22,471 bases of DNA. Origin: Candidatus Xenobia bacterium (GTDB taxonomy: Bacteria; Vulcanimicrobiota; Xenobia; Xenobiales; QWHO01). Positions 2,986 through 21,613 of this stretch are shown piece by piece; position 1 is the first letter of the stretch; every line of letters begins with the position of its first letter. The DNA is taken from positions 1 to 22,471 of the forward strand of contig BTUM01000110.1 of NCBI GenBank assembly GCA_045863235.1, read 5' to 3'. The notes under the pieces were generated by a model. That model saw only the letters and a list, made by a program, of their open reading frames with translations. It was not told where the DNA came from and made no database searches. A program made the translations under genes and the position numbers.

Positions 2986-3006
2986 TCGATGACCGGAGGT
3001 GACAGA

Positions 3007-3318
3007 ATGGCTGTGCGAGGCTACAATGGAGCCGTGGAATATCCCTACATCGTGAAGACTCCCGGCACGTGCGGCGGCGCTCCTCGACTCGACGGGCACC
3101 GCATCCGCGTGTCCCACATCGCGGCCTGCTCTGAGAAGGCGGGCTGGTCTCCCGAGGAGATCGCCCAGAACTTCAGTCTCACGCTGGCCGAGGTTCACGC
3201 AGCGCTGACCTACTACTTCGATCATCTCGAGGAGATCCGGGCCGAGTGGCGGGAAGCCGCGCGGCGCGGCGAGGAGATCAAGAAGCTCTTCCCCCCGCGG
3301 CTGCCCCAGATTGCCTGA
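3007..3318 (+). CDS. DUF433 domain antitoxin (VapB45-like)
   Basis: GGAGGT RBS at 2995-3000 before ATG 3007; IVKTPGTCGGAPRLDGHRIRV...GWSPEEIAQNFSLTLAEVHAALTYYFDH. Confidence 0.9.
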   Translation: MAVRGYNGAVEYPYIVKTPGTCGGAPRLDGHRIRVSHIAACSEKAGWSPEEIAQNFSLTLAEVHAALTYYFDHLEEIRAEWREAARRGEEIKKLFPPRLPQIA

Positions 3319-3643
3319 CAAGATCCGCTTCTATTTCGACGAGAGCTTCATGGGACCGGTGGCAAAGGGGCTCCGCCTTCGCGGGATTGATGTCGTCACC
3401 GTGGAGGACCTGGGACTCAAGGGGGCCGTCGATGAAGAGAACTTGACCCGTGCCGCAGCCGATGAGCGGGTGCTCGCGACCATGGATGATGACTTCCTGG
3501 TTCTGCACAACCACACCGAGCATTGGGGCATCGTCTACGCTCCGATGGGCGAGCGCAGCATTGGCTATCTCGTGCGCACGCTGCAGCGTATCCACGACGA
3601 GATGGTGCCAGAAGAGCTCCGCAACCGCGTTGAGTACATCTGA
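3311..3643 (+). CDS. DUF5615 family PIN-like toxin (VapC45-like)
   Basis: RFYFDE..., LRLRGIDVVTV, D-x-E...AAADERVLATMDDDF, HWGIV; overlaps the DUF433 gene by 8 nt. Confidence 0.9.
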   Translation: MPDKIRFYFDESFMGPVAKGLRLRGIDVVTVEDLGLKGAVDEENLTRAAADERVLATMDDDFLVLHNHTEHWGIVYAPMGERSIGYLVRTLQRIHDEMVPEELRNRVEYI

Positions 3644-3734
3644 CCCAGGTCCAACCCCCCCCCGCCCTCGAATTCAAATCCTAATGACAGCGCTCCCAAA
3701 AGTGCATCTTGCGTGCGCGGCACCATGGCCTCCC

Positions 3735-3925
3735 AACTACACCTGGGCCCCCGACGAGCCTCGCCTGACCCGGGTGTAGGGACCCGGCGGCATCGACGTG
3801 AGCTACTCGTACGACTCGGCGGGCTGCATGCTGACGCGCGTTCGGGCGGCGTGACCACTACCTTCGTGGGCAGAATCTGGGTCGTTTGATCCAACGACCC
3901 TATCAAAGCGTGGATGCAACTGGAT
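3735..3925 (+). pseudogene. Degraded Rhs/YD-repeat fragment
   Basis: Reading through the TAG at 3777 gives NYTWAPDEPRLTRV*GPGGIDVSYSYDSAGCMLTRV. After frameshifts come GGVTTTFV and LGRLIQRP..SVDATG, resembling YD repeats and the Rhs core end (LGRFxxxDP...DPxG). Confidence 0.6.
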
Positions 3926-4022
3926 TTGTGCATCACGGATTCGATGAAGAAGCTTGTGGACGGCGAGGCTTGAGTGGTTGGGTGCCGATGGCGTGCGCCG
4001 GAAACAGGCAGAATCAGGCCGG

Positions 4023-4044
4023 CGCGCTCGGAAGGGGTCGCCCA
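4023..4044. repeat. 22-bp direct repeat, exact copy of 867-888
   Basis: CGCGCTCGGAAGGGGTCGCCCA at both sites. Confidence 0.9.
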
Positions 4045-4242
4045 ACTCGGACGAGTCTCGGGGGAGTGGCGATGACGCCGACTCGGGGCCCTCAGCCGTA
4101 TAGTGCCCGCTACCGCCCCATTAGCCCCGACCTGCCCGGTTGGCGCAAAACTTTCCGCGTAGATCCGCTGCGACCGGCCCTCCCGAGGAACTCGGAGCGG
4201 ACGGGTAGGAGGTCTGCCCCTCGGGAGACGAATCTCCCCTCG

Positions 4243-4539
4243 ATGGGCAAGCTGTATCGTCATGGCGATGTGCTGATCCAGGAGGTGGAGCGCCTTCCGG
4301 GCGGGCTCGAGAAGCTCTCCCACCGCATTCTGGCCCACGGCGAGGTGACCGGTCACTGCCACCAGGCCCGCGGAGAGGCCGAGCTCTACCGGGGCGAAGG
4401 GGAGCTTTATCTGCGGGCGGTGGGGCTGGTGGAGGTCGTCCACGAGGAGCACCGGACCATCGAGCTGTCCCCCGGTTTCTACCGGGTCTGGCGGCAACGC
4501 GAGTACACGCCGCGCGAGGTTCGCATCGTCCGTGACTGA
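4243..4539 (+). CDS. Conserved 98-aa His-rich hypothetical protein of the type usually paired with DUF6745
   Basis: Motifs YRHGDVLI, LAHGEVTGHCH, VHEEHRTIELSPGFYRVWRQREYTP...VRD; the ATG at 4243 marks the onset of GC3-biased coding. Confidence 0.85.
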   Translation: MGKLYRHGDVLIQEVERLPGGLEKLSHRILAHGEVTGHCHQARGEAELYRGEGELYLRAVGLVEVVHEEHRTIELSPGFYRVWRQREYTPREVRIVRD

Positions 4540-5413
4540 GGCGACCCGCTTGGCTGGCCGGGTCAGCTTCGGGGGGGACACGCTGAGCGCCGGCCTCCAC
4601 TGCTACGAGCTGGACGCGCGCGGCGCCAGGCTCACCCACCTGCCGGACGACCTGCGGGTGGACGGACGACTGGTGCTGGACGAATGCCGCCAGCTGACCC
4701 ACCTGCCCGAAGGCTTGACGGTGGGGTCGCTGAGCCTGCGCAACTGCACCTCCTTGACCGCGCTGCCCGAGGGGTTGAGCACCTGGTTTTTGGACCTGAC
4801 CGGCTGCACGGCCTTCCAGCACTGGCCCCGCCGGGCCACCATCGAGCGGGGGGCGCTCATCCTGCGCGACTGCACCGCCCTCACCGCTCTGCCGGACTGG
4901 CTGGGGAGGCTGAGCACGCTGGACCTGGCCGGCTGCGCCGGCATCCGATCCATCCCTGACGGAGTCGAGGTGACGCTCTGGCTGGACATCGGGGGAACCT
5001 CCCTGAGCGCTCTTCCGCCCAGCCTCAAGGGCGCTCCGTTGCGCTGGCGAGGGGTGCGGGTGGACGAGCGGATCGCCCTGCGCCCCCACGAGCTGACGGC
5101 CCGCGAGGCGCTGCAGGAGCCCAACGCGGAGCGGCGCCGGGTGATGATCGAGCGCATGGGGACGCTGCGCTTCGTGCGCGAGGCCGACCCGGCGGTGCTC
5201 GATGAAGACCGGGACCCGGGCGGAGAGCGGCGCCTGCTGCGCATCGAGCTTCAGGAGGACGAGCCGCTGGTGGGCCTGCTCTGCCAGTGCCCCTCCACCG
5301 GGCGGCAGTATCTCATCCGGGTTCCCCCCCTGATGAAGTCGTGCCACCAGGCGGCCGCCTGGATCGCCGGCTTTGACGAGCCTTCCCTCTATCAACCGTG
5401 TCTGGAGACGTAA
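4532..5413 (+). CDS. Leucine-rich-repeat protein with C-terminal DUF6745-like domain
   Basis: About six ~21-aa repeats LTxLPxGLxVxxLxLxxCxxL, followed by WRGVRV...EPNAERRRVMIERMG...CPSTGRQYLIRVPP...AAAWIAG. Confidence 0.82.
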   Translation: MTEATRLAGRVSFGGDTLSAGLHCYELDARGARLTHLPDDLRVDGRLVLDECRQLTHLPEGLTVGSLSLRNCTSLTALPEGLSTWFLDLTGCTAFQHWPRRATIERGALILRDCTALTALPDWLGRLSTLDLAGCAGIRSIPDGVEVTLWLDIGGTSLSALPPSLKGAPLRWRGVRVDERIALRPHELTAREALQEPNAERRRVMIERMGTLRFVREADPAVLDEDRDPGGERRLLRIELQEDEPLVGLLCQCPSTGRQYLIRVPPLMKSCHQAAAWIAGFDEPSLYQPCLET

Positions 5414-5415
5414 GC

Positions 5416-6588
5416 ATGCGACGAGAGCTCATCTACATGGACGCCAAATCGAGCAAGTTCTGGACCATCGAGCTGCAGGGCTCAGGCCACACGGTGACCT
5501 ACGGGCGCATCGGCTCGGCCGGCCAGACGAGCAGCAAGTCGTTTGCCAGTGAGGAAGCGGCCCGCAAGGACTTCGACAAGCTGGTCAAAGAGAAGCTGTC
5601 CAAGGGGTACGTCGAGAAGGCCGGTCAGGAGACGAGCGGGGACGAGCTCCCCCTGGTGGCCTTCACCTCCATCAACCACCGCGACGAGATCTCGAGCAAC
5701 CTGGGCACGTTCATCGGGATGCGGGTGGTGGACTACGACCCCGACAAGCCGACCCGAAGCGACGTGGTCTATCGCCTGCGCGCCACCTGGGAGAAGGAGG
5801 AGCTCCCCCTGGAGAGCTTTCTGGCCTCGGAGGCGGCGGCTCAGGCCCGAGGGCTGGTGATCGGAGCCTGGCAGGTGGACGATTCCAGCGTGGACTCCTC
5901 GTCGGTGGTGAGCACCCTGGCGCGGGCGGCCGGGCGGCTGGGGAAGCTGGTGGCCCTCTACCTGGGCGACATCGTCAGCGAGGAGTGCGAAATCTCCTGG
6001 ATCAACCAGTGCGATCTGACTCCCCTGCTGCAGGCCTTCCCGAGCCTGCAACTGCTGCGCGTGCGGGGAGGCGAGGGTTTGGCCCTGAGCGCGCCTCGCC
6101 ACGCGTGCCTGCGAGGGCTGGCGCTGGAGGCGGGGGGGCTGGACGTGGGCGTGATCCGCTCGGTTTGCCAGGCCGACTTTCCCGAGCTTGAGTACCTCGA
6201 GCTGTGGCTGGGCACCTCCGACTACGGCGCTACCGCCACCGTGGCTGACCTGCAGCCGCTCCTGTCGGGTCGGCTCTTCCCGAAGCTGAAGTACCTGGGA
6301 CTTCGCAACAGCGAGCTCGCCGACGAGCTGGCCGGGGTGCTGGTCAACAGCCCGGTGGTGGAGCGTATCGAGACGCTGGATCTCTCGCTGGGAGTGCTCA
6401 CCGATGAAGGCGGGCAGTCGCTGCTCAAGCTCTCCAGCCCCACCCTCAAGAAGCTCAACCTGCACTACAACTACTTCAGCCCCGAGCTGAGCCGACAGCT
6501 CAAGGCCCTGCCGTTCGCGGTGGACGTCTCCCGACCGGCCGACATGGAGGAAGAAGAGGAGTGGCGCTTTGTCGCCGTGGGGGAATAA
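5416..6588 (+). CDS. WGR domain fused to STM4015-family LRR protein
   Basis: N-terminal SSKFWTI...VTYGRIGSAGQ...KLVKEKLSKGY (WGR); GLVIGAW, LYLGDIVSEECEISWINQ, LEYLELWLGTSDYG, LDLSLGVLTDEG; ends RFVAVGE. Confidence 0.85.
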   Translation: MRRELIYMDAKSSKFWTIELQGSGHTVTYGRIGSAGQTSSKSFASEEAARKDFDKLVKEKLSKGYVEKAGQETSGDELPLVAFTSINHRDEISSNLGTFIGMRVVDYDPDKPTRSDVVYRLRATWEKEELPLESFLASEAAAQARGLVIGAWQVDDSSVDSSSVVSTLARAAGRLGKLVALYLGDIVSEECEISWINQCDLTPLLQAFPSLQLLRVRGGEGLALSAPRHACLRGLALEAGGLDVGVIRSVCQADFPELEYLELWLGTSDYGATATVADLQPLLSGRLFPKLKYLGLRNSELADELAGVLVNSPVVERIETLDLSLGVLTDEGGQSLLKLSSPTLKKLNLHYNYFSPELSRQLKALPFAVDVSRPADMEEEEEWRFVAVGE

Positions 6589-7606
6589 GCCCGCTCTGGG
6601 GCTGCTCGGCAACCCCGACAACCGGCGCATCCGCGACTTTCAAGACACGGCCGAGCGGCTGGGCTGGCCCCGCCCACCCTGCCTGGCCTACCGCGACCTC
6701 TTGCGCGACCCGGGGTTGCTCGCAGCCTGGCAGGTGGAGGCGGTGCGCATCGACTCGCCGGGCGAGAACGAGGATGTGGCCCGGGGGCTGATCGCTCTGG
6801 GGGGCGGCCCCGCCCAGGCCGACCTCGAGCACGGCCAGATCGGCTATCTGCGCGAGTATCACCGCGGCTTTTGCCGGGTGCTCGAGTGGGTGGCAACAAG
6901 CGGCCTGCGCTGCTGGAACGAGCCGGGCGAGATCGCGGCGATGTTCGACAAGGAGGCGTGCCACCGGCGCTTCGTGGCGGCCGGGCTGCCCCGTCCGCGG
7001 GTAGGGCGCGACCTGCTCGAGCGCGCCGCGGGACGAGTGTTTCTCAAGCCGCTGCACGGCTCCTCGGCTTCGGGAGTGTGCGCGCTGCGCTGGCGTCCGG
7101 GGCGGCGCGAGCTCATCGCTCCCCTGCGAATCGTCCAGGGACGGCTCTTCAACAGCCTGAAGGTGAGCCGCACCACCGATCCCGGCGAGATCGAGCGCAT
7201 CCTGGGCGAGCTCGAGCCGCAGGGCATGATCTGCGAGGAGTGGATCCCCAAGCTCACCCTGGCAGGGGGCGCGGTCGACCTCCGGGTGCTGGTGATCGCC
7301 GGGGAGGCGCGCCACCGGGTGGTGCGCCAGAGCCGCCACCCGATGACCAACCTGCACCTGGGCAACCGGCGCGGGGAGGAGTCGGCCCTGCTCGCGGCCA
7401 TCGGCCCGGAGCGCCTGGAAGCGGCCCTGCGGCTGGCCGAGCAGGCGGCGGCCTGTTTTCCGGGCTCGCTGGCGGCCGGGGTGGACATCCTGCTGGATAC
7501 CTCCCACCGGGCCGTGGTGGGCGAGATCAATGCCTTCGGAGACCTTCTGCCCGGCCTGCGCCACCGGGGCGAGACCGCATATGAGGCCCTGTGCCGTGCC
7601 TTCTAG
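6569..7606 (+). CDS. STM4014-family ATP-grasp ligase
   Basis: GNPDNRR, VRIDSPGE, MFDK, FLKPLHGSSASGV, EEWIPK, DLRVLV, MTNLHLG, GVDILL, EINAFGDLLP are RimK-like ATP-grasp motifs. Confidence 0.85.
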   Translation: MSPWGNKPALGLLGNPDNRRIRDFQDTAERLGWPRPPCLAYRDLLRDPGLLAAWQVEAVRIDSPGENEDVARGLIALGGGPAQADLEHGQIGYLREYHRGFCRVLEWVATSGLRCWNEPGEIAAMFDKEACHRRFVAAGLPRPRVGRDLLERAAGRVFLKPLHGSSASGVCALRWRPGRRELIAPLRIVQGRLFNSLKVSRTTDPGEIERILGELEPQGMICEEWIPKLTLAGGAVDLRVLVIAGEARHRVVRQSRHPMTNLHLGNRRGEESALLAAIGPERLEAALRLAEQAAACFPGSLAAGVDILLDTSHRAVVGEINAFGDLLPGLRHRGETAYEALCRAF

Positions 7607-8207
7607 AAGTCCGGCCCACGTGGTGTCGGAGGAGGTTTCCGGCTGCGCTCCTGGAGCTATCCTGTTTGACCTGGACAACACCCTGGTCGACCGCGACCGG
7701 GCCCTGGGCGAGCTTCTGGCCGCCCGCTTTGCCGACCCCAAGGTCCGCGCCGAGCTGCTCTTGCTCGATCGCGAGCCGGGCCAGGCATTCCTGCGCGCCT
7801 GGAGCGAGCGCTCGGGCCGTCGGTTCACCCGGCAAGAGCTGGCTGAAGAGCTGGCCCTGAGACTGGCCCCCGACCCCGAGCTCATCGAGGCTCTGCGCGA
7901 GCTGGGGCGGCGCTGCCAGCTGGGGCTGGTCAGCAACGGAGGCAGCCGGAGCCAGCGCGCCAAGCTACGCGCCGCCGGGCTGGAGGAGCTCTTCGGAGCG
8001 GCGCTGGTGGTGTCGGGCGAAGTGGGCCTGGAAAAGCCCGACCCGGAGATCTTCTGGCTGGCCTGCCGGCGGCTCGGGCGCGAGCCGCACGATTGCCTCT
8101 TCATCGGCGACCAGGAAGCGGTGGACGGGGTGGGGGCCCGGGCCGCCGGAATGAGCTTCCGGCTGGCCACAAGGGTCCTGGACGCGGAAACGGTGCGCGG
8201 GCTGTGA
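7596..8207 (+). CDS. HAD-superfamily hydrolase/phosphatase (start uncertain: 7581, 7596 or 7620)
   Basis: Motif I FDLDNTL, II VSNG, III KPDPEIF, IV FIGDQEAVD. Confidence 0.88.
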   Translation: MPSRSPAHVVSEEVSGCAPGAILFDLDNTLVDRDRALGELLAARFADPKVRAELLLLDREPGQAFLRAWSERSGRRFTRQELAEELALRLAPDPELIEALRELGRRCQLGLVSNGGSRSQRAKLRAAGLEELFGAALVVSGEVGLEKPDPEIFWLACRRLGREPHDCLFIGDQEAVDGVGARAAGMSFRLATRVLDAETVRGL

Positions 8208-8980
8208 AAGAGCGAGTGGGCAGCCACGACCTGTTGATGGTGACTCTGGACACGCTGCGCTACGACGCGGCCCAGCGGGCTTTCGATCAGGGGCTCCTGA
8301 GCACGCTGGGACCCTACCTCGAGCCGGACGGCTGGCAGATGCGCCACAGCCCGGGCAGTTTCACCTACTCGGCCCACCAGGCTTTCTTCGCGGGGTTCTT
8401 GCCCACGCCGGTCGGGCCAGGGCCCCATCCCCGGCTGTTCGCGGCCGCCTTCGCGGGCAGCGCCACCACGGTGGACAGCACCTTCGTCTTTCCCGAGGCC
8501 AGCCTGCCCCGGGCGCTCGAGGCACGCGGCTACCGCACCCACTGCATCGGGGGCACGGGCTTCTTCAGCCAGCAAAACGAGCTCTCCCGGGTCCTGCCCG
8601 GGCTGTTCTCGCAGGCGGTGTGGCGTCCCGAGCTGGGGGTGACCTGCCCCGAATCGCCCGTCCACCAGGTGGAGGAGGCGCTGAGGGCCCTGCAGGGCGA
8701 GGGGCGGCGGCTGATCTTCTTGAACGTGGCCGCCATCCACCAGCCCAACTGGTTCTACGGGGGAGAGGAAGGCCAGGACACGCTGGCCACCCACACGGGG
8801 GCCCTGGTGGCGGTGGACCGCGCTCTGAAGCCCTTGCTGCGGGCGATGAAGGAGCGCGCCCCCACCTTCGCCCTGGTCTTCTCCGACCACGGCACGGCTT
8901 ACGGCGAGGACGGCTATCAGGGCCACCGGCTCGGCCACGAGGTGGTGTGGACGGTTCCCTACGCGGAGTTCGAGCTGTGA
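8204..8980 (+). CDS. STM4013/SEN3800-family hydrolase (alkaline phosphatase/sulfatase superfamily)
   Basis: GTGA overlap; TLDTLRYD, SPGSFTYSAHQAFFAG, FLNVAAIHQP, FSDHGTAYGEDG, GHR...VP. Confidence 0.85.
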   Translation: MKERVGSHDLLMVTLDTLRYDAAQRAFDQGLLSTLGPYLEPDGWQMRHSPGSFTYSAHQAFFAGFLPTPVGPGPHPRLFAAAFAGSATTVDSTFVFPEASLPRALEARGYRTHCIGGTGFFSQQNELSRVLPGLFSQAVWRPELGVTCPESPVHQVEEALRALQGEGRRLIFLNVAAIHQPNWFYGGEEGQDTLATHTGALVAVDRALKPLLRAMKERAPTFALVFSDHGTAYGEDGYQGHRLGHEVVWTVPYAEFEL

Positions 8981-10278
8981 GGCTGGCCGAGCGGCTCGAG
9001 CAGGACGGCTACGACGGCTACGCCTACTCGTATCCCCACAAGACGGCTTACCGGCCGCTCGAGCCGGCCGTGCCCCTCACGCAGGCCTGGCAGGAGGAGG
9101 ACAAGAGTCGTCTTTTTCTCTACGTGCACCTGCCATTCTGCGAGATGCGCTGCGGCTTTTGCAACCTCTTCACCACCGTGCGCCCCCCCGAGGAGCTGGT
9201 GGAGCGCACGCTCTCGTCCATCGCCCGCCAGGCCCGCGTGGTGGCCGAGTGCATCGCTCCCGAGGGGGTGGCCCAGGCCGCCGTGGGCGGGGGCACTCCC
9301 AGCTACCTCAGCGAGGTCCAGCTCGAGCGGCTCTTCGCCGATCTGAGCAGCTCCTGGCCGGTGCGCTGGTCGCGGATCCCGGTCTCGGTGGAGCTCTCGC
9401 CGGCCACCGTGACTCCGGGAAAGCTGGCCCTGCTGCGCGAGCTGGGAGTGGAGCGGGTCAGCCTGGGCGTGCAGAGCTTCGTGGCCGCCGAGCTGGCGGC
9501 CCTCAAGCGCCCGCAACAAGCCGGCGAGGTGGAGCGGGCCTGCTCGGCCATCCGGGCGGCCGGCTTTGCCATCTTCAACCTGGACCTGATCTACGGTCAG
9601 GAAGACCAGAGCGCGGCGAGCTGGGAGGAGAGCCTGGAGCGGGCTCTTGCGTGGCGGCCCGAGGAGCTCTACCTCTACCCGCTCTACGTGGGCAAGCGCA
9701 CCAACCTGGACGTGCTGGGCAAACGCCCGGGAGCGCGCCGCCAGGAGCTCTACCGGGTGGGGCGCGACCGGCTGCTGGCGAGCGGCTACCGGCAGCTCTC
9801 GATGCGCAGCTTCCGGCGAACGGAGGTGAGGCGCTGCTCGGACTACTGCTGCCAGGAGGACGGGATGGTGGGGCTGGGGCCGGGGGCACGCTCGTACACC
9901 CGCGCGCTGCACTACAGCTCGGAGTATGCCGTGGCCCAGACGGGGGTGCGCCGCATCGTCGACTCCTTCGCCGAGCGCGATTTCAGTCGGGCCGACTACG
10001 GGGTAAGGCTGGACGACTCGGAGCAGAAGCTGCGCTGGCTGATCAAGTCGCTGCTGCGGGCCGAGGGGGTGGCGCTCTCGGGCTATCGCGAGCGCTTCGC
10101 GAGCTCGCTGGAGGACGATCACCCGCGCCTGGGCGAGTTGTTGGAGGCAGGTCTGGCCGAGCGCTCTTGCGACCGCCTGAAGCTGACCGAGGAGGGGCTG
10201 GCGCGAAGCGACACGCTGGGGCCCTGGCTCTATTCCGAGGCGATGAGCGAGCGGATGGCCAGCTACACGCTCTGGTGA
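8977..10278 (+). CDS. STM4012-family HemN-like radical SAM enzyme
   Basis: GTGA overlap; YAYSYPHKTAY, LYVHLPFCEMRCGFC (CxxxCxxC), GGGTPS, RVSLGVQSF, NLDLIYG, GLGPGARSY. Confidence 0.9.
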   Translation: MRLAERLEQDGYDGYAYSYPHKTAYRPLEPAVPLTQAWQEEDKSRLFLYVHLPFCEMRCGFCNLFTTVRPPEELVERTLSSIARQARVVAECIAPEGVAQAAVGGGTPSYLSEVQLERLFADLSSSWPVRWSRIPVSVELSPATVTPGKLALLRELGVERVSLGVQSFVAAELAALKRPQQAGEVERACSAIRAAGFAIFNLDLIYGQEDQSAASWEESLERALAWRPEELYLYPLYVGKRTNLDVLGKRPGARRQELYRVGRDRLLASGYRQLSMRSFRRTEVRRCSDYCCQEDGMVGLGPGARSYTRALHYSSEYAVAQTGVRRIVDSFAERDFSRADYGVRLDDSEQKLRWLIKSLLRAEGVALSGYRERFASSLEDDHPRLGELLEAGLAERSCDRLKLTEEGLARSDTLGPWLYSEAMSERMASYTLW

Positions 10279-11237
10279 GGGAGCCTGGCACTCCGGTGAC
10301 CTGGAGCATCCTCTACCGGGGCTCGCTGTCGAGCTGCAACTACGCCTGCGACTACTGCCCGTTCGCCAAGCGGGCCAATACCCGGGCCGAGCTGGCCCGG
10401 GACTTTGACGAGCTGGAACGGTTCGTGGATTGGGTGAGCGGCTGCCCGCGCGAGCTGCGTCTGCTGCTCACGCCGTGGGGGGAGGCGCTGGTGCACCGGG
10501 CCTACCGGCGGGCGCTGGTGCGGTTGTCCTGGCTGCCCCGGGTGCGGCGGGTGGCCATCCAGACCAACCTGAGCGCTCCTTTGCAAGACCTGGCCGGGGC
10601 CGGGCCGTCACTGGCCCTGTGGGCCAGTTTCCACCCCTCCCAGGTCACTCTGGAGCGCTTCCTGTCCCGCTGTCTCAAGCTGCACGAGCTGGGCCTGCGC
10701 TTCAGCGTGGGGGTGGTGGGGCTGCGCGAGCATTTCGAGGCCATCGAGGAGCTGCGGGCCCGGCTGCCGCGGACGATCTACCTCTGGGTCAACGCGTTCA
10801 AGCGCTTGCCGGACTACTACCAGCCCGGGGAGGTGGAGCGACTGGTGGGGGTCGATCCCTACTTCCGGCTCAACCTGCCCCGCTACCGGAGCCTGGACCG
10901 TGCCTGCCGGACCGGCGAGACGAGCTTCACGGTGGATGGGAGAGGGGACGTGCGCCGGTGTCACTTCGTGGGCCAGGTGCTGGGCAACGTGTACGAGCCT
11001 GGCTTCGAGGCCTGCCTGAGAGAGCGGCTCTGCCCGGCCGAGCGCTGCGGCTGCCACATCGGCTACGTGCACCGGCCGGAGCTGCGGCTCGAGGAGGTGT
11101 TCGGAGAGGACGGGCTGCTCGAGCGGATCCCGGCCGGCTGGCCGGAGTTGGATTCTCGGCTCAGGAATTCTGGGAAGGACTCGCCCCGGCTGACCCGAAC
11201 TTTCGGCCACCGTGGACGCTCCCGTAACCCCCGATAG
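10275..11237 (+). CDS. STM4011-family radical SAM protein with Cys-rich SPASM/twitch-like C-terminus (alternative start 10296)
   Basis: GTGA overlap; LYRGSLSSCNYACDYCPF, TPWGEAL, IQTNLS, CRTG...GDVRRCHF...LGNV...CPAERCGCHIGY. Confidence 0.9.
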   Translation: MREPGTPVTWSILYRGSLSSCNYACDYCPFAKRANTRAELARDFDELERFVDWVSGCPRELRLLLTPWGEALVHRAYRRALVRLSWLPRVRRVAIQTNLSAPLQDLAGAGPSLALWASFHPSQVTLERFLSRCLKLHELGLRFSVGVVGLREHFEAIEELRARLPRTIYLWVNAFKRLPDYYQPGEVERLVGVDPYFRLNLPRYRSLDRACRTGETSFTVDGRGDVRRCHFVGQVLGNVYEPGFEACLRERLCPAERCGCHIGYVHRPELRLEEVFGEDGLLERIPAGWPELDSRLRNSGKDSPRLTRTFGHRGRSRNPR

Positions 11238-12276
11238 TCTTGCTCGCGCCAACAAGGTTCTGCAGAGCAATCCATCCCTCGACCTGCACACCCACCTGGG
11301 TTTGTGGGAGACCCGGGGTCTGCCGGACATCTCCGAGCTCCTTCGCTACATCGGCGACGACCGCATGAGGCAGAACGTGCTGGACTTCGTCGAGGGGGGC
11401 GTCAAGAGCGCTTCCATCTGTCTGACTCCGGATATTCCCATTATCGCCCTGGGCCAGCCCGGGAACATCGTAAGGCCCTTCGAGGAAGATCAAGCCTGGG
11501 AAGAGTATCAGCGGCAGCAGTTTCTCTTGCACGAGAACCTCCAGACGCTCCCCATGAAGAAGGTGACCCGTATCGACGAAATCGAGTCCGTGGCGGCCGA
11601 AGGGAAGCTGGCCGTCTTCCTCTCGACTGAGGGGGGTCACATGGTGGAGAAGGACCTGGGCCGCATGGAGCAGCTTTATCAGGACGGAATCCGCAATTTT
11701 CAACCGGTTCATTACGCGGCCAATGGTCTGGGCGACAACCAGACCGATCCGCCTCGTTTTGGCGGGCTGTCCCCGCTGGGCAAGGAAGCCGTGCGTGAGG
11801 CCTGTCGTCTCAAAATGACGGTCGACGCTGCCCACGCCTCGTTTGAATCCGCCCGGAGCATGGCGGAGATCGTTGGGGGCCCGATCGTGCTCTCGCACAC
11901 CATGCTCCGATATGACTCCCCACGTTTTGGCTCTTATCAGGACAACCGGCCTCGCTGGGTGACCGCCGACCACGCCCGACTGGTCGCCGAAACAGGTGGC
12001 GTGATTGGCGTTTGGCCCTACGGTCCCCCTTATGGCGTGGCAAGCATGGAGGCCTTCGTCGAGGCCGTCAAGGTCCTGGCCGACACGGTCGGTATCGACC
12101 ACATCGGCTGGGCGACGGACTGGGTCAATCCTCTGATGGGAAGCTGGTTCTCCAGTTGCCGAGAGTTCCCCCACCTGTGCGCCGCCCTGCTTGAAACCGG
12201 CTTCTCGGAGCAGGATCTGGCTCAGTTCATCGGTGGCAACGCGCTGCGCGTCCGCCGCCACGTGCTCCGTGCCTGA
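11212..12276 (+). CDS. Membrane dipeptidase family (peptidase M19) Zn amidohydrolase
   Basis: DLHTH, STEGG, GLSPLGKEAV, VDAAHAS, LSHT, GGVIGV, VGIDHIGWATD, FIGGNALRV. Confidence 0.88.
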   Translation: MDAPVTPDSLARANKVLQSNPSLDLHTHLGLWETRGLPDISELLRYIGDDRMRQNVLDFVEGGVKSASICLTPDIPIIALGQPGNIVRPFEEDQAWEEYQRQQFLLHENLQTLPMKKVTRIDEIESVAAEGKLAVFLSTEGGHMVEKDLGRMEQLYQDGIRNFQPVHYAANGLGDNQTDPPRFGGLSPLGKEAVREACRLKMTVDAAHASFESARSMAEIVGGPIVLSHTMLRYDSPRFGSYQDNRPRWVTADHARLVAETGGVIGVWPYGPPYGVASMEAFVEAVKVLADTVGIDHIGWATDWVNPLMGSWFSSCREFPHLCAALLETGFSEQDLAQFIGGNALRVRRHVLRA

Positions 12277-13192
12277 GGAGGTCCTTCCCGTTACCCTGGT
12301 CACGGGTTTTCTGGGCAGTGGCAAGACCACGCTGCTCAACCACATTCTGACCGCCCGGCGTGGCCATCGCACCGCAGTACTTGTCAACGAGTTCGGCGAG
12401 CTGGGCATCGATGCCGAGTTGATCGTCTCGACCGAGGGCGACATGGTGGAGCTGGCCAACGGGTGCATCTGCTGCAGCATCAACGAGGATCTCGTGAGGG
12501 CCGTGGCCCGGGTGCTCGAGCAGCGCCACCGGGTCAATTGTCTGCTCGTGGAGACGTCCGGCCTGGCTGATCCGATGCCGGTGGCCATGACCTTCGTCGG
12601 TCGTGACCTCGAGCAACTTACGCGGCTCGACGCGATCATCACGATGGTGGACTCAGAGAACTACGCCCATGCAGAGTCTACGGTCGCCGGCTACAACCAG
12701 ATCCGTTTCGCCGATCTCCTCTTGCTCAACAAGGCGGACCGGGTGGACGATGCCCGGCTGGAAGACCTGGAGGCTCGCCTGCGAGACATTAAGAAAGGGG
12801 TTCGCATCCTTCGGACGACGCGGGCCAGAGCGCCCTTGCCGCTCGTGCTCGATCTGGCTCGATTCAAGCCGACCGAGGTTGCGCAACCCTGTCCGGACCA
12901 TCTCGATCAGGACGGTTTCACCTCGCTCTCGTTCCAAAGCGACCGCCCGGTGGTGATCGAGAAACTTCAGCATTTCCTGGCCGAGCAGCTCCCACAGGAG
13001 GCTTTCCGCGTTAAAGGCCTTCTTTCCGTCGCCGGTCGCCCTGAGCGCTACGTCCTTCACATGACCGGACGCCGATTCACTCTCGACCGGGGCGAGTGGG
13101 GCGCTCCCGCTCACGGCACCCGTCTGGTGATCATCGGCCGCAACCTCGATCACGAGGTGTTGCGCGCGCAGCTTGGAGCTTGTTTCCAATAG
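12269..13192 (+). CDS. COG0523/CobW-family G3E P-loop GTPase metallochaperone
   Basis: PVTLVTGFLGSGKTT, VNEFGELGID, ELANGCICC (CxCC), ETSGLADP, NKAD, C-terminal RVKG and LVIIGRNLD. Confidence 0.93.
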   Translation: MPEEVLPVTLVTGFLGSGKTTLLNHILTARRGHRTAVLVNEFGELGIDAELIVSTEGDMVELANGCICCSINEDLVRAVARVLEQRHRVNCLLVETSGLADPMPVAMTFVGRDLEQLTRLDAIITMVDSENYAHAESTVAGYNQIRFADLLLLNKADRVDDARLEDLEARLRDIKKGVRILRTTRARAPLPLVLDLARFKPTEVAQPCPDHLDQDGFTSLSFQSDRPVVIEKLQHFLAEQLPQEAFRVKGLLSVAGRPERYVLHMTGRRFTLDRGEWGAPAHGTRLVIIGRNLDHEVLRAQLGACFQ

Positions 13193-13214
13193 CATTCCAG
13201 ATCAGGAGGCGTCC

Positions 13215-13589
13215 ATGGCAAAGAAAGTATTGATTGTCGGGGGTGGCACGATGGGTGTGGGAATCATCGCCACATTCCTGGCGGGCGGATGGAGGACGGT
13301 TCGCTTGAGCTTCGGATTTCGCTACGCGGCGGCCGGTCCCATCACGCAAAAAGAGCATTCCGGCTGGGACACCACCTGTGAGAGCTCGACAAGCATCTGG
13401 CCCCATTTGTGCAATGCCACCGGTCCACCCCCGGTGCTCTTGAAGCAAGTCCAGGAGGGGCACCTGGGCTTCAAGACCGGGAGGGGCTTCTTTCCCTGGG
13501 ACGAGGCTTCGATCGCGCGTGAAAACGCCCGCTACGACAACGCTTTGCACAAGTGTCTGGAGATCTTCCGGGGGGAGGGAATCATCTGA
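13215..13589 (+). pseudogene. 3-hydroxyacyl-CoA dehydrogenase with a large in-frame internal deletion
   Basis: AGGAGG RBS; Rossmann start VLIVGGGTMGVGI joined directly to C-terminal-domain motifs FGFRYAAAGP and GHLGFKTGRGFFPW; only 124 aa. Confidence 0.8.
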
Positions 13590-13623
13590 GCACTACTGTG
13601 CGAGGCTTCGGCACTAAACAACG

Positions 13624-13666
13624 CGCCAGAGCCGGATCCAGGAGTATTCCTGGAGATGCCCTGGCG
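13624..13666. terminator. Stem-loop between convergent genes, possible terminator
   Basis: TCCAGGA-GTAT-TCCTGGA (13637-13654) enclosed by CGCCAG/CTGGCG; T-rich tail on the minus strand. Confidence 0.4.
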
Positions 13667-13694
13667 AAAAATGGCTCACCAACGCAGAGCTCAG

Positions 13695-14963
13695 CTACTT
13701 CTTGCCGGCGGGCTGGGCCTTCAGCTCGGCCTGCACCTGCTTGAGCTGAGCCACCGCCGCCTCCATGTTGGGGAAGCGGTTGTTCTTGTCCTTGGCCATC
13801 ATGTACCAGACGCACTTGGCCAGCAGGTCGGGGATGGCGGCATTGAGCTTGCGGGGGTCTTGCAGGGGCTCGTTGAGGTGCTTCATCATGATCTGCACCG
13901 ACTGGTCGCCCTCGAAGGGGCGCCGCCCGGTGATCAGCTCGAACAGCACGCAGCCCAGAGCGTACTGATCGGCGCGCCCGTCCACATGCTCGTCATCGCG
14001 GATCTGCTCGGGCGACATGTAAGCGGGAGTTCCCAGGGCCGTGCCAGCCTGGGTCAGGCTCGACCGACCCTCGGGGCGGGCCAGGCCGAAGTCCAGGATG
14101 CGGGGGCCGGACTTGCTCAAGATGATGTTGTCGGGCTTGATGTCACGGTGCACCACGCCGAGTTTGTGGGCGTAGCCGAGCACGCCGGCGATGGCGATGG
14201 TCAGATCGACCGACTCGCCCAGGTTGGGCCAATCCTTCCGCAGCCGGCTGGAGAGCGTTTCTCCGTCGGCATACTCCATGGTCATGAAGTGAAGGTCACC
14301 CTGGTGACCGGATTTGAAGACCTTGACGATGCCGGGATGATCCAACCTCTGCAACAGCTCGATTTCGCGCTCGAGACGCCGGGTGAACTCCTCGTCCTTG
14401 ATGGCCTCCTCGTTGAAGATCTTGACGGCGATGGATTCGTCCTCATCGAGGGTGCGGTCGGGCACGGCCCGGTAGACCTTGGAGTAGGCTCCCGAGCCAA
14501 GGCGCTCGACGATGCGATACTCGTCGAGCTTGGACAAGATCATGGAATCTTCGGCGACCTTGGCGTTGTACTTCTCCAGCGTGCGGGCCCGCGAGGCGAG
14601 CCGCATCGAGCGCACCAGCCAGTTGACGAGCAGGACCCCGGCGAAGGCGGGGATGATGCGCACGCCGGCGATGGAGGGGCCCAGGGTGCCGAGCAGGCGC
14701 TGGCCGATGAGGGCCCCCACCAGGCCGAAGAGGGTCATGCCGATCAGGCCGTGGTTGTGCTTGGCGGGGTAGAACCGCTCGGCGGCGTAGCCCAGGCCTC
14801 CCGAGATGGTCACGACGATGATCAATCCCCACAGGCTCTTGACCAGAGAGAAAAAGAACCACAACAGCAGCAGGCCCACCACGCCCGCCCCGATGAGATA
14901 GGTGCGGTCACGCCCCTTGAGAAACGCCTCCGTCCACTCCACCAGGCCCAGAATGAATCCCAT
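13695..14963 (-). CDS. Hanks-type Ser/Thr protein kinase with multi-TM N-terminus (GlsB/YeaQ/YmgE-like)
   Basis: LGSGAYSKVY, VAVK-like IAVK, HRDIKPDN, DFG, GTPAYMSPE, DQYALG; AGGAGGAG lies 8 nt before ATG 14963. Confidence 0.92.
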   Translation of the reverse strand: MGFILGLVEWTEAFLKGRDRTYLIGAGVVGLLLLWFFFSLVKSLWGLIIVVTISGGLGYAAERFYPAKHNHGLIGMTLFGLVGALIGQRLLGTLGPSIAGVRIIPAFAGVLLVNWLVRSMRLASRARTLEKYNAKVAEDSMILSKLDEYRIVERLGSGAYSKVYRAVPDRTLDEDESIAVKIFNEEAIKDEEFTRRLEREIELLQRLDHPGIVKVFKSGHQGDLHFMTMEYADGETLSSRLRKDWPNLGESVDLTIAIAGVLGYAHKLGVVHRDIKPDNIILSKSGPRILDFGLARPEGRSSLTQAGTALGTPAYMSPEQIRDDEHVDGRADQYALGCVLFELITGRRPFEGDQSVQIMMKHLNEPLQDPRKLNAAIPDLLAKCVWYMMAKDKNNRFPNMEAAVAQLKQVQAELKAQPAGKK

Positions 14964-15111
14964 CCGTCCAGCTCCTCCTGTGCGGATGTTCTTCTCCATT
15001 GAGCGCGAACTGCCTTCGTCAGCGTATCGTCAGCCGGGGCGGGGACAAGTTAACAATCGGTCTTGAAATCGCAACAGCGCGTTCGGCGCGAATGGTTAAA
15101 ATGGCGCTCCG

Positions 15112-17199
15112 ATGGAGCTTCTCACTCCCGTCAGCCGTCCTGGCTCGGCCTTGCCGCCGGAGGTGGCGCGTTTCGTTCGCAAGATCGAAACCCGGGTGGA
15201 CGAGGTGTGCGCGGGGCAGGCCCGCGAGCTGGGCGAGCTGCCCGAAGACCTCAAGAAGCTGGCCCGGCTGGCACGCAACGCTCCCCTGGCGGCCTCGGCC
15301 CCGTTCGAGCCCCAGCACACCCGCTCGGTGGCCAACCTCATGGCCACTGTCAACCAGATCAACCTGTACGCCAGCCTGGCCGTCAGCCCGGCTCCGGTGG
15401 CGGGCTGCCACGAGGTGCTGCGCCAGGGCCTGGAAGAGCTGCAGAGCGGGCTGGAGACGGTCTATGGAGGGGCGCGCGAGCTGCAACGCAAGGCCCACGT
15501 GCTCGGTCCCCCTCCCCCGCCCGACCTGGTGCCGATGGTGGAGGTGCCGGCGGGCAGCTTCAAGTTCGGGCTCGACGACCGCCCCGAGAGCCTGCCCGCC
15601 TACCGCATCAGCCGCTACCCGGTGACCAACCGGCAGTTCGCCGCCTTCGTGGAGGCCACCAGGCACCAGGTGCAGGGGGGATGGACGGCGCCGGAGGAGT
15701 CGCGAGGAGATCATCCCGTCACCCAGGTGACTTTCTACGACGCCCAGGCCTTCGCGCGCTGGGCGGGAGGCCGGCTGCCCACCGAGCTCGAGTGGGAGAA
15801 GGCGGCCCGAGGCACGGACGGGCGGAAGTACCCCTGGGGAAACCAGTGGGACCCGCGCCGCTGCAACAACGACTCCACCGGCACCACCCCGGTCACGGCC
15901 TTCGAGCGCAAGGGGAACGTGTCGCCGTTCGGAGCGGTGGACATGGTGGGCAACGTGCTCGAGTTCGTGGACGGGGCGACGAGCCGAAGGCCCGGGGCGG
16001 TGCTGCTCAAAGGGGGGGCCTGGACCAACTACGTGACCCGGCACAACCAGCCGTTCGACTGCATCCGGCACACCTCCGAGACGCCCGAGTCGAGCTACAA
16101 TGGATTTGGCTTTCGCATCGTGATGGACGGGCCCGGGGAGCAGGCTGAACTCGGGCTGCACTTCGACGATCTCGACCCGCGCGAAGAGCCGGGGGCGCTC
16201 GAGAGCATTCCCGACCACCTGTCCGGGAGCTTCGGGGTGCTGCAGCGCCAGGTGAATCTGTCGCTCGAGGGCCGGCCCGAGGCGCTCAAGCCGCTCTCGC
16301 AGGCGCTGCGCGAGATCTGCCGCGAGACGCGCGAGCTGCGCCCCAGCGCCCAGGACCCTGCCAGCCAGCAGCTCCAGCAGCGGGTGGACCAGGTGCACTC
16401 GCTGGCCAACCGGATCGCGGCCACGGCGGCCCTGGTAGCCACCGGCAGCCCCCCTCACGGACTCAGCCTGGCCACGGCCGCCCAGGTGCTCGGCGACTCC
16501 ACCCAGGAGCTGTTCGCAGCCGCCTGCGAGGTTCACGAGGGAGCCACGCTGCGCTCGATCGCCGACCAGGCCGAGAGAGGGCCCCGGGCCGACCTGATCG
16601 AGTGGGTCTCGATCCCCGAGGGCAAGTTCCTGTTCGGGCGCGAGAACGCCTCGGTGCCGCTGGAGGCGTTCGAGATCTCCCGCTACCCGGTGACCAACGA
16701 GCAGTACCACGAGTTCGTGAAAGCCACCGGCTACGTGAGCGAGGGGGGCTGGCGGGAAGGTTACCCGGAGGCGGAGGCCCGCCACCCGGTGGTCAATGTG
16801 ACCAGCTTCGACGCCCGGGCGTTCTGCGAGTGGGCCGAGTGCCGCCTGCCCAGCGAGCAGGAGTGGGAGAAGGCGGCCCGAGGGACGGACGGGCGGCGCT
16901 ATCCGTGGGGCGACGAGTGGGACCCGGCGGTGTGCAATCACGAGGGCGCCGGGCTCTCGGCCGTGGACGCCCACGAGGAGGCGGGCAACGTCTCCCCCTA
17001 CGGGGTGGTGGACATGGTGGGGAACGCCCTGGAGTACGTGGACAGCACGTCCTCGCGCCGTCCAGGATCGACGGTGCTCAAGGGCGGGGCCTGGTCGAAC
17101 GGGTCGCTCAAGCCGTTCGACGCCATCCGGCACACGACCGAGGTGACCGGGGGGGCTTACAAAGGATTCGGGTTCCGGGTGGCGCGCAGCGCCTCCTGA
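15112..17199 (+). CDS. Protein with two FGE-sulfatase (SUMF1-like) domains, each preceded by a helical region
   Basis: Twice: [10 protein letters not shown], HPVxxVT, [23 protein letters not shown], SPxGxVDMVGN, KGGAW, GFGFR. Confidence 0.9.
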
Positions 17200-17341
17200 G
17201 GGGAGCGGCTGGGCGCCTAATGGGATCCCGAGCGCCGGGTGCGGGTGATGCTAAGTTCGTTCAATCAGCACTAGGGAATCTGGGCCTTCAACCGTGCACA
17301 CGCCTGATCGCCAGTTCGGCAACACCTGTACGTCCGGAAAC

Positions 17342-17370
17342 GGTGATCGAACGGTGATCATCTGGTGATC
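17342..17370. repeat. Three GGTGATC direct repeats with 11-bp period
   Basis: GGTGATC at 17342, 17353 and 17364. Confidence 0.7.
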
Positions 17371-17383
17371 AGGTTTGGTGGCG

Positions 17384-21143: not shown

Positions 21144-21211
21144 TCATCAGGAACATTCGCTGGGAGTGTGAACCCTCCGCTCGGGTGCCCGGCAGGGCGC
21201 GGGGCCGAAGG

Positions 21212-21613
21212 CTGACCCACCTGAATGCGGGCAGAGCCGACGGAACCTACGAACGTCGGTTCAACAACCTCGCCCGGGTGGAGCTCCTCATCATCGACGA
21301 CTTTGGGCTGAAGACACTGAAGCCACCAGCTGACGAAGATTTCCACGAGCTGGTTGCCGAGCGTTATGAGCGCGGAGCCATCGTCCTGACGAGCAACTTA
21401 GACTTCGGGGAGTGGGGCAATGCCTTCGCCAATCCACTGCTCGCGTCCGCCACCATTGATAGACTCCGGCACAACGCCCATTGCCTGACCATTGAAGGCG
21501 AGTCCTACCGGTCCCCGCGCTCCATGAACTCGAAAGAGCGCAATGGGAAGCCGATCGCTAAGGCCAAGCCGATGAACGGGCCTGACAGCCCCGTGGACGT
21601 TCCCAGGAAATAA
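21212..21613 (+). mobile_element. istB: IS21-family IstB helper ATPase, C-terminal fragment
   Basis: ADGTY..., LLIIDDFG (Walker B), ERYERGAIVLTSN, EWG, ATIDRLRHNA, IEGESYR; Walker A and istA absent. Confidence 0.88.

Follow-up and report, generated by a model that had tools for sequence, protein, structure and literature searches.

What chemistry is encoded by a block of eight closely packed genes in the genome of a Candidatus Xenobia bacterium, and what does that chemistry act on? The block lies at positions 4243-11237 of contig BTUM01000110.1 (assembly GCA_045863235.1), and the window analysed here is the whole stretch of 22,471 nucleotides around it. An original prediction, made from the sequence of the window, had described eight co-oriented genes with abutting or overlapping ends, including GTGA start/stop overlaps at 8204, 8977 and 10275, and this layout was confirmed, with all eight on the + strand. 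The same gene set recurs in other genomes, which makes the arrangement more than chance. The block is one real, intact eight-gene operon of two layers. It is a new variant of a cassette that is catalogued, under the family names STM4011 to STM4015, but functionally uncharacterised.

The explanation favoured here is that the cassette modifies the flexible, Glu-ending and invariant C-terminal tail of its own leucine-rich repeat (LRR) protein, STM4015, and that the first two genes of the block, g1 and g2, supply an optional accessory heterodimer. This is held tentatively, with slightly less than even confidence. Tail self-modification is the best-supported mechanism because of the Glu tail itself, a ligase with LysX and RimK kinship, a radical S-adenosylmethionine (SAM) enzyme with an SkfB-like cluster, and a phosphoesterase.

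Five of the eight genes make up the cassette. In the window all five NCBIfam family models score above their curated cut-offs, in the order 4015-4014-4013-4012-4011. The genes are adjacent and co-oriented in one block, and a HAD gene sits between STM4014 and STM4013. The source genome has one strong match for each cassette enzyme family; other tblastn matches are weak, at 24-32% identity.

Related loci were collected through STM4015. An alignment of 27 homologues of g3, the STM4015 gene of the window, was used to fetch loci from contigs of one genome per species, and the best 80 of at least 548 stretches encoding an STM4015 relative form the sample. The window proteins were then searched against all open reading frames (ORFs) of these loci by phmmer. 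STM4015 is present in 80/80 loci by selection, STM4014 in 75, STM4013 in 70, STM4012 in 69 and STM4011 in 68; the contigs behind several of these misses measure just 1.4-3.7 kb. What stays constant across the related loci is the five-family core. Their phylum labels number at least eight: Planctomycetota, Verrucomicrobiota, Chloroflexota, Deinococcota, Actinomycetota, Acidobacteriota, Myxococcota and Pseudomonadota.

The candidate substrate is encoded by g3 (5416-6588), which matches STM4015 at 306 bits (NF038076, cut-off 275). The protein consists of a WGR domain (PF05406, 65.3 bits against a gathering threshold of 22, residues 14-75 of a 396-aa ORF), an RNI-type LRR (STM4015 family) and an acidic patch, followed by an invariant tail with Gly-Glu as its last two residues. 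It had been called a WGR-LRR protein before. The WGR part of that call is well above its cut-off; the LRR part is to be read with more care, as it comes from sub-threshold Pfam matches and from ribonuclease-inhibitor LRR profile matches (E 1.7e-5).

The C-terminal residue of the tail is Glu in 79/79 complete STM4015 proteins of the sample, and the 80th runs off its contig. In the complete proteins this Glu is preceded by a small residue and an R-[FY]-x-x-x motif. The 27 close homologues all agree in their final four residues, which follow an acidic patch and an aromatic residue.

A relative of g3 has a solved structure. PDB entry 2RA8, the uncharacterised protein Q64V53 of Bacteroides fragilis (362 aa), matches g3 across both domains at E 4.4e-56 and the STM4015 family profile at E 8.2e-77. 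A full-text search found no functional study of it.

Directly after g3 comes g4 (6569-7606, start codon uncertain), which encodes STM4014, an ATP-grasp ligase (NF038074, 318.6 bits, cut-off 175). When a profile of 40 STM4014 sequences was compared with solved structures, LysX came out nearest (1uc8, E 1.9e-7; 3vpd), with a match that covers partial stretches, followed by RimK (5zct and 4iwx, E about 1e-5, with 1.3e-5 for RimK). The RimK model TIGR00768 gives g4 26.5 bits, below its cut-off of 143.4, so the kinship is remote. STM4014 homologues share invariant Lys, Arg, Asp and Asn residues. The ATP-grasp ligases LysX and RimK use as acceptor the C-terminal Glu of a protein, LysW or ribosomal protein S6. 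By analogy, g4 would activate the terminal Glu carboxylate of STM4015 and ligate an amine to it.

The cassette also has two radical SAM enzymes. The HemN-like g7 (8977-10278) is STM4012 (NF006067, 535.1 bits, cut-off 380; PF04055, 59.9 bits against 29.5), with a visible CxxxCxxC motif and a sub-threshold HemN_C match. The last gene, g8 (10275-11237), is STM4011 (NF038073, 360.6 bits, cut-off 200; PF04055, 30.6 bits against 29.5). Its family has invariant cysteines at C21, C25 and C28 and a C-terminal cluster at C211, C229 and C260. The sole solved match of STM4011 is a weak one, to the C-terminal auxiliary-cluster region of SkfB (E 0.0033). Among radical SAM peptide maturases with auxiliary clusters, PqqE and MftC are examples of C-terminal or Glu-directed chemistry. 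In the favoured scheme g7 and g8 would follow the ligase and alter the tail or the group appended to it, g8 with an auxiliary Cys cluster as in peptide-modifying enzymes.

The remaining core enzyme, g6 (8204-8980), is STM4013, a phosphoesterase of the alkaline phosphatase superfamily (NF038075, 345.2 bits, cut-off 250). Members of this superfamily of the NPP type use Asp and Asp-His as metal ligands and a Thr nucleophile in a T-x-x-x-H context. The invariant residues of STM4013 are D16, T54, H58, D228 and H229. Its profile has remote matches, between sequence profiles only, to sulfatases (E 4e-6) and to the NPP structure 2gsn (E 3.9e-5), and these fit a Thr-nucleophile phosphoesterase, which g6 probably is. 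Before it lies g5 (7530-8207), an HAD-IA phosphatase (PF00702, 84.1 bits) with sub-cut-off matches to nucleotidase and phosphatase subfamilies, pyrimidine nucleotidases included. It was detected in 20/80 loci and is an optional insert in the cassette. In the scheme, g6, and g5 where present, would remove a phosphoryl or nucleotidyl group. Searches of PDB sequences with g4, g6 and g8 as single sequences gave nothing useful, and the structural relatives named here come from profiles.

The enzyme set had originally been taken to suggest synthesis of an unusual small molecule or modification of a protein or nucleotide, and the idea of an unusual modification chemistry has gained ground, given that the enzymes are a coherent conserved unit. 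The substrate, the precise chemistry and the order of the steps are what we infer from this.

The same facts can be arranged differently. STM4015 may be a carrier, as LysW is: its Glu tail would be a handle and not the end product. An amino compound would be attached there by the ligase and remodelled in place by the radical SAM enzymes and phosphoesterases, and a hydrolase encoded elsewhere would free the resulting metabolite or cofactor. LysX as the top solved match of STM4014 speaks for this, as does the tail, whose acidic patch, aromatic residue and final Gly-Glu probably resemble the tail of LysW. HAD-IA and NPP-type enzymes normally use small phospho-compounds, and in the window an M19 dipeptidase gene starts inside the end of g8. 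The LysW/LysX system, however, has a small zinc-ribbon carrier together with a kinase, a reductase, an aminotransferase and a release hydrolase. Here the carrier would be an LRR protein of 300-400 aa. Pfam and NCBIfam find none of these four enzyme families among the eight genes, none of them is conserved with the cassette, and M19 is found in 0/80 loci. We regard a carrier pathway as unlikely.

Another possibility is that the product is free: the enzymes would synthesise or alter a small molecule or a nucleotide, and the LRR protein would be its scaffold, regulator or receptor and not the substrate. Nucleotide chemistry would suit the putative NPP-type phosphodiesterase fold of g6 and the pyrimidine nucleotidase matches of g5, and relatives of RimK cap Glu-tailed cofactors. 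Yet this leaves the terminal Glu of all 79 LRR proteins unexplained, and also that the sole solved match of STM4011 is an auxiliary cluster of the peptide type. It is distinctly unlikely in our view.

Modification of the STM4015 tail by its own cassette is retained as the working explanation, and it concerns the core enzymes. The place of g1 and g2 is a separate matter. The original prediction had treated g1, g2 and the WGR-LRR protein as one front half, a sensor layer coupled to the enzymes. They are not one unit. STM4015 belongs to the core; WGR is fused to it in 30/80 loci, and the g1-g2 pair is found in 41/80. Both are present in 15 loci, WGR only in 15, the pair only in 26, and neither in 24. 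This means that WGR and the pair vary independently, and both are optional add-ons. It had been reasoned that rare co-occurrence of front and back would count against their coupling; in the sample the two appear together at roughly half of the loci.

The pair itself is tight. While g1 occurs in 41/80 loci and g2 in 42/80, the two co-occur in all 41 loci with g1, and one extra locus has g2 only. Their position relative to the cassette is variable: upstream on the same strand in 22 of the 41 loci, downstream on the opposite strand in 12, upstream and divergent in 6, and downstream on the same strand in 1.

The first gene, g1 (4243-4539), encodes 98 aa and has no Pfam or NCBIfam match. The earlier label of "His-rich" can be made more exact: there are 7 His in the 98 residues, and 4 of these are invariant across 39 homologues. 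The family motifs are QGDV, GExTGHxH, HEEH and QREYxP. It matches phrog_27831 (E 1.7e-13), and its nearest protein-atlas clusters are viral. The second gene, g2 (4532-5413), overlaps g1 by 8 nt, GTGACTGA, at 4532. It encodes Cys-containing LRRs followed by the C-terminal half of DUF6745 (PF20530, 56.7 bits, cut-off 27, profile positions 84-206 of 206 only). In actinomycete loci g2 is a full-length DUF6745 protein without LRRs.

Structure models were searched for known folds. The AF2 model of g1 is all-beta (pLDDT 86.8) and has no Foldseek match in the PDB at E <= 0.001, with a best VIA Z of 3.2. The model of the DUF6745 C-terminal domain (pLDDT 90.7) likewise has no Foldseek match in the PDB, and its best VIA Z of 4.6 covers a four-strand beta-meander only. 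These searches assign no fold to either protein, which is different from showing a new one.

The two proteins are predicted to bind each other. Cofolding of g1 with g2 gave ipSAE values of 0.76, 0.77 and 0.77, against 0.00 in all three controls. The partner pLDDT is 84 and the runs share at least 90% of contacts. In calibration the mark was reached by 116/157 solved complexes and 2/215 mismatched pairs, figures that are only roughly valid here as the alignments (37 rows for g2, 39 for g1) were self-supplied. As the searches gave neither chain a solved relative, the score is unlikely to reflect a memorised structure. This suggests that g1 and g2 form a heterodimer. The modelled interface involves residues 1-11, 69-73 and 83-93 of g1, and in g2 the DUF6745 half, at residues 199-203, 242-256, 262-266, 277-280 and the tail 286-293. 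It includes many invariant positions of both proteins. Independent support for binding comes from single-chain fusions: of 85 longer homologues with a g1 domain (E <= 1e-5), nine also contain PF20530, one of them in the order g1-LRR-DUF6745.

Other fusions point elsewhere. The g1 domain is joined to HNH-type domains in 10/85 of these longer homologues and to an ASCH domain in 1/85. In five of them (P0262, P0291, P0295, P0309 and P0245) it is the C-terminal part of an HNH/HNH_3 endonuclease or ASCH-domain protein, with its motifs intact. From such architectures there are hints that the g1-type domain has a role related to nucleic acids.

The pair is also found away from the cassette. The source genome has two more g1-like and DUF6745 gene pairs with no cassette nearby (loci L086 and L087), at ~25069-26002 (-) of contig C73 and ~9627-10747 (+) of contig C17. 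The C73 pair adjoins a ribosomal-protein/rpoA cluster. In the C17 pair the g1 match has one internal TGA stop marked, and the translated ORF stops short of the family's usual final residues. Phages carry the pair too. In Microcystis phage Ma-LMM01, gp175 is g1-like (tblastn E 2e-10) and the adjacent gp174 is a DUF6745 protein (PF20530, E 1.3e-14). In the siphovirus MW202476.1 the gene of a DUF6745 protein (E 1.1e-33) is likewise followed by a g1-like ORF, which has no annotation. Since the pair occurs elsewhere in the source genome and in phages without the cassette, it is not specific to the cassette. It is a separate module.

The wider g1 family is very large, with E <= 0.001 for 7986 of 8000 scored candidates. 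In a phylum sample of 201 genomes, STM4014 was above its cut-off in 13 and a g1 relative was found in 10. Four of the 201, the source genome included, have a g1 relative and STM4014 on one contig within ~3 kb. In these four the g1 score is 128 bits or more, and g1 matches not adjoining a cassette score at most 100. A g1 tree of 43 rows, with L021, L022 and L056 left out, places paralogues and phage copies on very long branches, so that a single clade of cassette-linked g1 genes is not decidable from it.

For the favoured explanation this would make g1-g2 an accessory module borrowed from a much larger family. The four-His g1 would bind the C-terminal half of the DUF6745 protein, and the variable N-terminal region of g2, which here is an LRR, would direct the constant heterodimer; STM4015 or its modified tail is a plausible target. 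This role is what we infer for the pair.

Several observations weigh against this explanation. The idea of a tail substrate draws on conservation and on a remote ligase kinship, at E 1e-7, and may be read otherwise. A conserved C-terminus can be structural, and fixed ends are found elsewhere in the same operon: g1 always ends in Asp and g2 always in (E/Q)T. RimK-family ligases also act on Glu-tailed small cofactors, which means that the acceptor need not be a protein. The cassette has no obvious peptidase or release enzyme and gives no clue to the added group. The g1-g2 pair is absent from 39/80 loci and from 9/13 cassette-bearing genomes of the phylum sample, from which it follows that the core cassette works without it. 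The invariant residues of g1 are kept in the inspected HNH-g1 and ASCH-g1 fusions without DUF6745, so the interface with g2 alone does not explain them. Finally, the 80 loci are biased to the best-scoring relatives and related genomes are not independent, so that the fractions given describe this sample and are not frequencies.

A bolder version can be imagined. The Glu tail of the LRR protein would receive a new covalent group, cofactor-like or signalling. A heterodimer of g1 and DUF6745 that derives from phages and finds its target through the LRR of g2 would then read or cleave this tail. The WGR domain and the HNH-associated g1 domain would tie this reaction to nucleic-acid events, making the whole an unrecognised conflict or signalling system that is based on a protein tail and shared by bacteria and phages. 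This is a long shot.

The original prediction had proposed a triggered conflict or defence system. In such a system WGR, LRR and the phage-type g1-DUF6745 pair would sense an invader or nucleic-acid damage, and the enzymes would yield an effector or signal. WGR is a sensor of nucleic-acid breaks in PARPs, and the WGR domain of g3 matches that of PARP3 at E 7e-4. The g1-g2 pair is phage-borne, and the HNH and ASCH fusions of g1 also fit.

Some content of the window can be counted on the same side. About 600 nt upstream of the operon, a DUF433 gene (2989-3318, +, E 3e-16) overlaps a DUF5615/PIN-like gene (3311-3643, +, E 2.4e-14), and together they look like a toxin-antitoxin pair. A 142-aa ORF at 21185-21613 (+) matches the IstB (IS21 helper) model at positions 132-233 only, as a fragment of an insertion sequence would. 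The cassette has ~70% GC, against 65.8% for the genome and ~62% for the flanks. Together with the DUF433/PIN-like pair and the IstB fragment, this makes it plausible that the cassette was acquired horizontally.

Known defence models add little. PADLOC-DB 2.0.0 was searched with nine proteins, the eight genes and one upstream ORF, and gave three weak domain-level matches: WGR_XIII (E 4.5e-6), PDC-M51A (E 4.1e-6) and pVip (E 0.0032, 15 bits). None is meaningful. The surroundings of 25 loci were sampled with up to three ORFs upstream and two downstream, picked greedily by length, for 148 ORFs in total, of which 122 were scanned. Four of the 122 match PADLOC at E <= 1e-15, a rate that is descriptive only as it comes with no matched background sample. 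Three of the four matches are generic (AAA ATPase, Ser/Thr kinase, ankyrin), and the other ORF is mad3-like. By Pfam, neighbours of the MoxR-vWA, ivWA or ARPP-1 type are found at 3/25 loci, a point for the defence reading. Most of the flanking ORFs at the 25 loci have housekeeping matches in Pfam, to ordinary metabolism, to regulators or to glycoside hydrolases, and neither an integrase nor a transposase is among them. Of 72,556 plasmid records, 13 contain an STM4011 relative, and 11 of the 13 are non-mobilizable. Two phage-collection records contain one as well. Both of these are labelled Salmonella; one is titled as a Salmonella enterica strain contig and the other is an unannotated 5.9-kb record.

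With no meaningful defence model, mostly housekeeping neighbours, no integrase or transposase conserved beside the cassette, and putative sensors that are optional and vary independently, the claim of triggered defence is left without positive support and is improbable.

Modification of the STM4015 tail is still the explanation we prefer, and what follows describes the rest of the locus. The WGR domain has its own variation. No other N-terminal domain was found to replace it in the long STM4015 ORFs of the loci. A Planctomycetota homologue (L018, 2248-3855) has two tandem WGR domains. Two WGR-STM4015 proteins of the 27-homologue alignment, P0104 and P0115, have hydrophobic N-terminal extensions of ~45 residues that resemble signal or lipoprotein peptides; g3 has none.

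Two genes downstream of the operon were considered as further members and rejected, an M19 dipeptidase and a CobW gene, each found in 0/80 loci. An upstream ORF of 260 aa is also found in 0/80. The longest ORF of the M19 gene (11212-12276, +) starts 26 nt before the g8 stop, and its GC is lower. It is probably a chance neighbour. Clustering of the remaining flanking ORFs of the 80 loci gave no other widely shared neighbour, the largest cluster being one of very large proteins from 13 loci. At locus L005 the cassette ends after the HAD gene, and a 1898-aa ORF lies on the opposite strand (~12810-18506, -). Large ORFs related to it flank the cassette in 13 loci.

Some gene starts deserve comment. 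In database-called homologues g3 begins at a position equivalent to the ATG at 5416, which gives 390 aa and lies 3 nt past the g2 stop, without overlap. An alternative GTG at 5398 gives the 396-aa ORF. For g5 the HAD domain begins at residue 43 of the ORF that opens at 7530, so its true start may follow the g4 stop at 7606.

The gap before g1 is ~600 nt. An Rfam scan of 3500-4400 for a riboswitch upstream of g1 returned two chance-level lncRNA matches only, and a consensus promoter and terminator scan of 3300-12500 returned zero promoter-like and zero terminator-like sites.

Contigs from four RNA-labelled libraries, X1 to X4 (wastewater, soil and sludge), match pieces of the operon at 95-100% identity, and some span the g1/g2, g3/g4, g4/g5 and g6/g7 junctions. 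The contigs are assembled, with a depth of 2-6, and the libraries may contain DNA; what they show is presence and not transcription. In library X1 the bins flanking the operon, 3321-3962 and 11346-11987, are uncovered. A contig of run X4 has a 9-nt insertion at 7614, past the g4 stop and ahead of the HAD domain of g5, which is probably strain variation in an intergenic or start region.

The literature on this cassette is thin. Full-text searches, supplements excluded, found no functional papers on the STM401x or SEN3800 names, only incidental table entries, and no characterised pathway that matches the cluster, in agreement with the original prediction. PMC3844500 has STM4013 in a table of sigma-54 binding sites, and PMC12413039 has STM4011 in an expression table. 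Full-text searches found no paper for DUF6745, and nothing for WGR together with radical SAM, ATP-grasp and phage. PMC11674859 notes WGR domains in LRR proteins of Leptospira.

Why does this locus matter? The core cassette is present in at least 548 species-level genomes from many phyla and has no assigned function, although its enzymes include two radical SAM proteins as well as a ligase and a phosphoesterase, and although the structure of one family member, 2RA8, is solved. If the Glu tail is indeed the substrate, this would be a new kind of protein-tail chemistry. In addition, two fold-orphan families, DUF6745 and its His partner, are predicted to form a heterodimer; they are abundant in phages and, at around half of the loci sampled, tied to the cassette. 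Solving either half would annotate thousands of proteins now called hypothetical.

STM401x cassettes are not new. The type locus in NCBIfam is that of Salmonella Typhimurium LT2, and the same five families are found here in the same order. Compared to it, the copy in the window adds the WGR fusion, the HAD gene between ligase and phosphoesterase, and g1 and g2 upstream. Like g3, 2RA8 is a WGR and STM4015-type LRR protein. It is a Bacteroides-type member, however, and related loci of that type carry a different tail from that of g3, although one that still ends in Glu.

The phage pair gp174/gp175 of Ma-LMM01 has the same two families side by side. The g2 of the window differs in that it keeps only the C-terminal half of DUF6745, behind an LRR, and the pair in the window is tied to an STM401x cassette.

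Among enzymes of known function, radical SAM peptide maturases with an auxiliary cluster of the SkfB type share with g8 a C-terminal Cys cluster, here beside a conserved peptide-like tail. The conserved cysteines and the weak SkfB match (E 0.0033) are a likeness to the SPASM/twitch peptide-modifying enzymes and by themselves do not establish membership. Other than in the peptide maturases, the candidate precursor is a folded protein of 390 aa, and neither an RRE/PqqD-type chaperone nor a protease is present.

LysX/LysW and RimK/S6 are further parallels. As in these systems, an ATP-grasp ligase is encoded beside a protein with an invariant C-terminal Glu. Compared to LysX/LysW, the partner in the window is a large WGR-LRR protein of 390 aa, and the ligase is accompanied by radical SAM enzymes and phosphoesterases instead of the enzymes of a lysine pathway.

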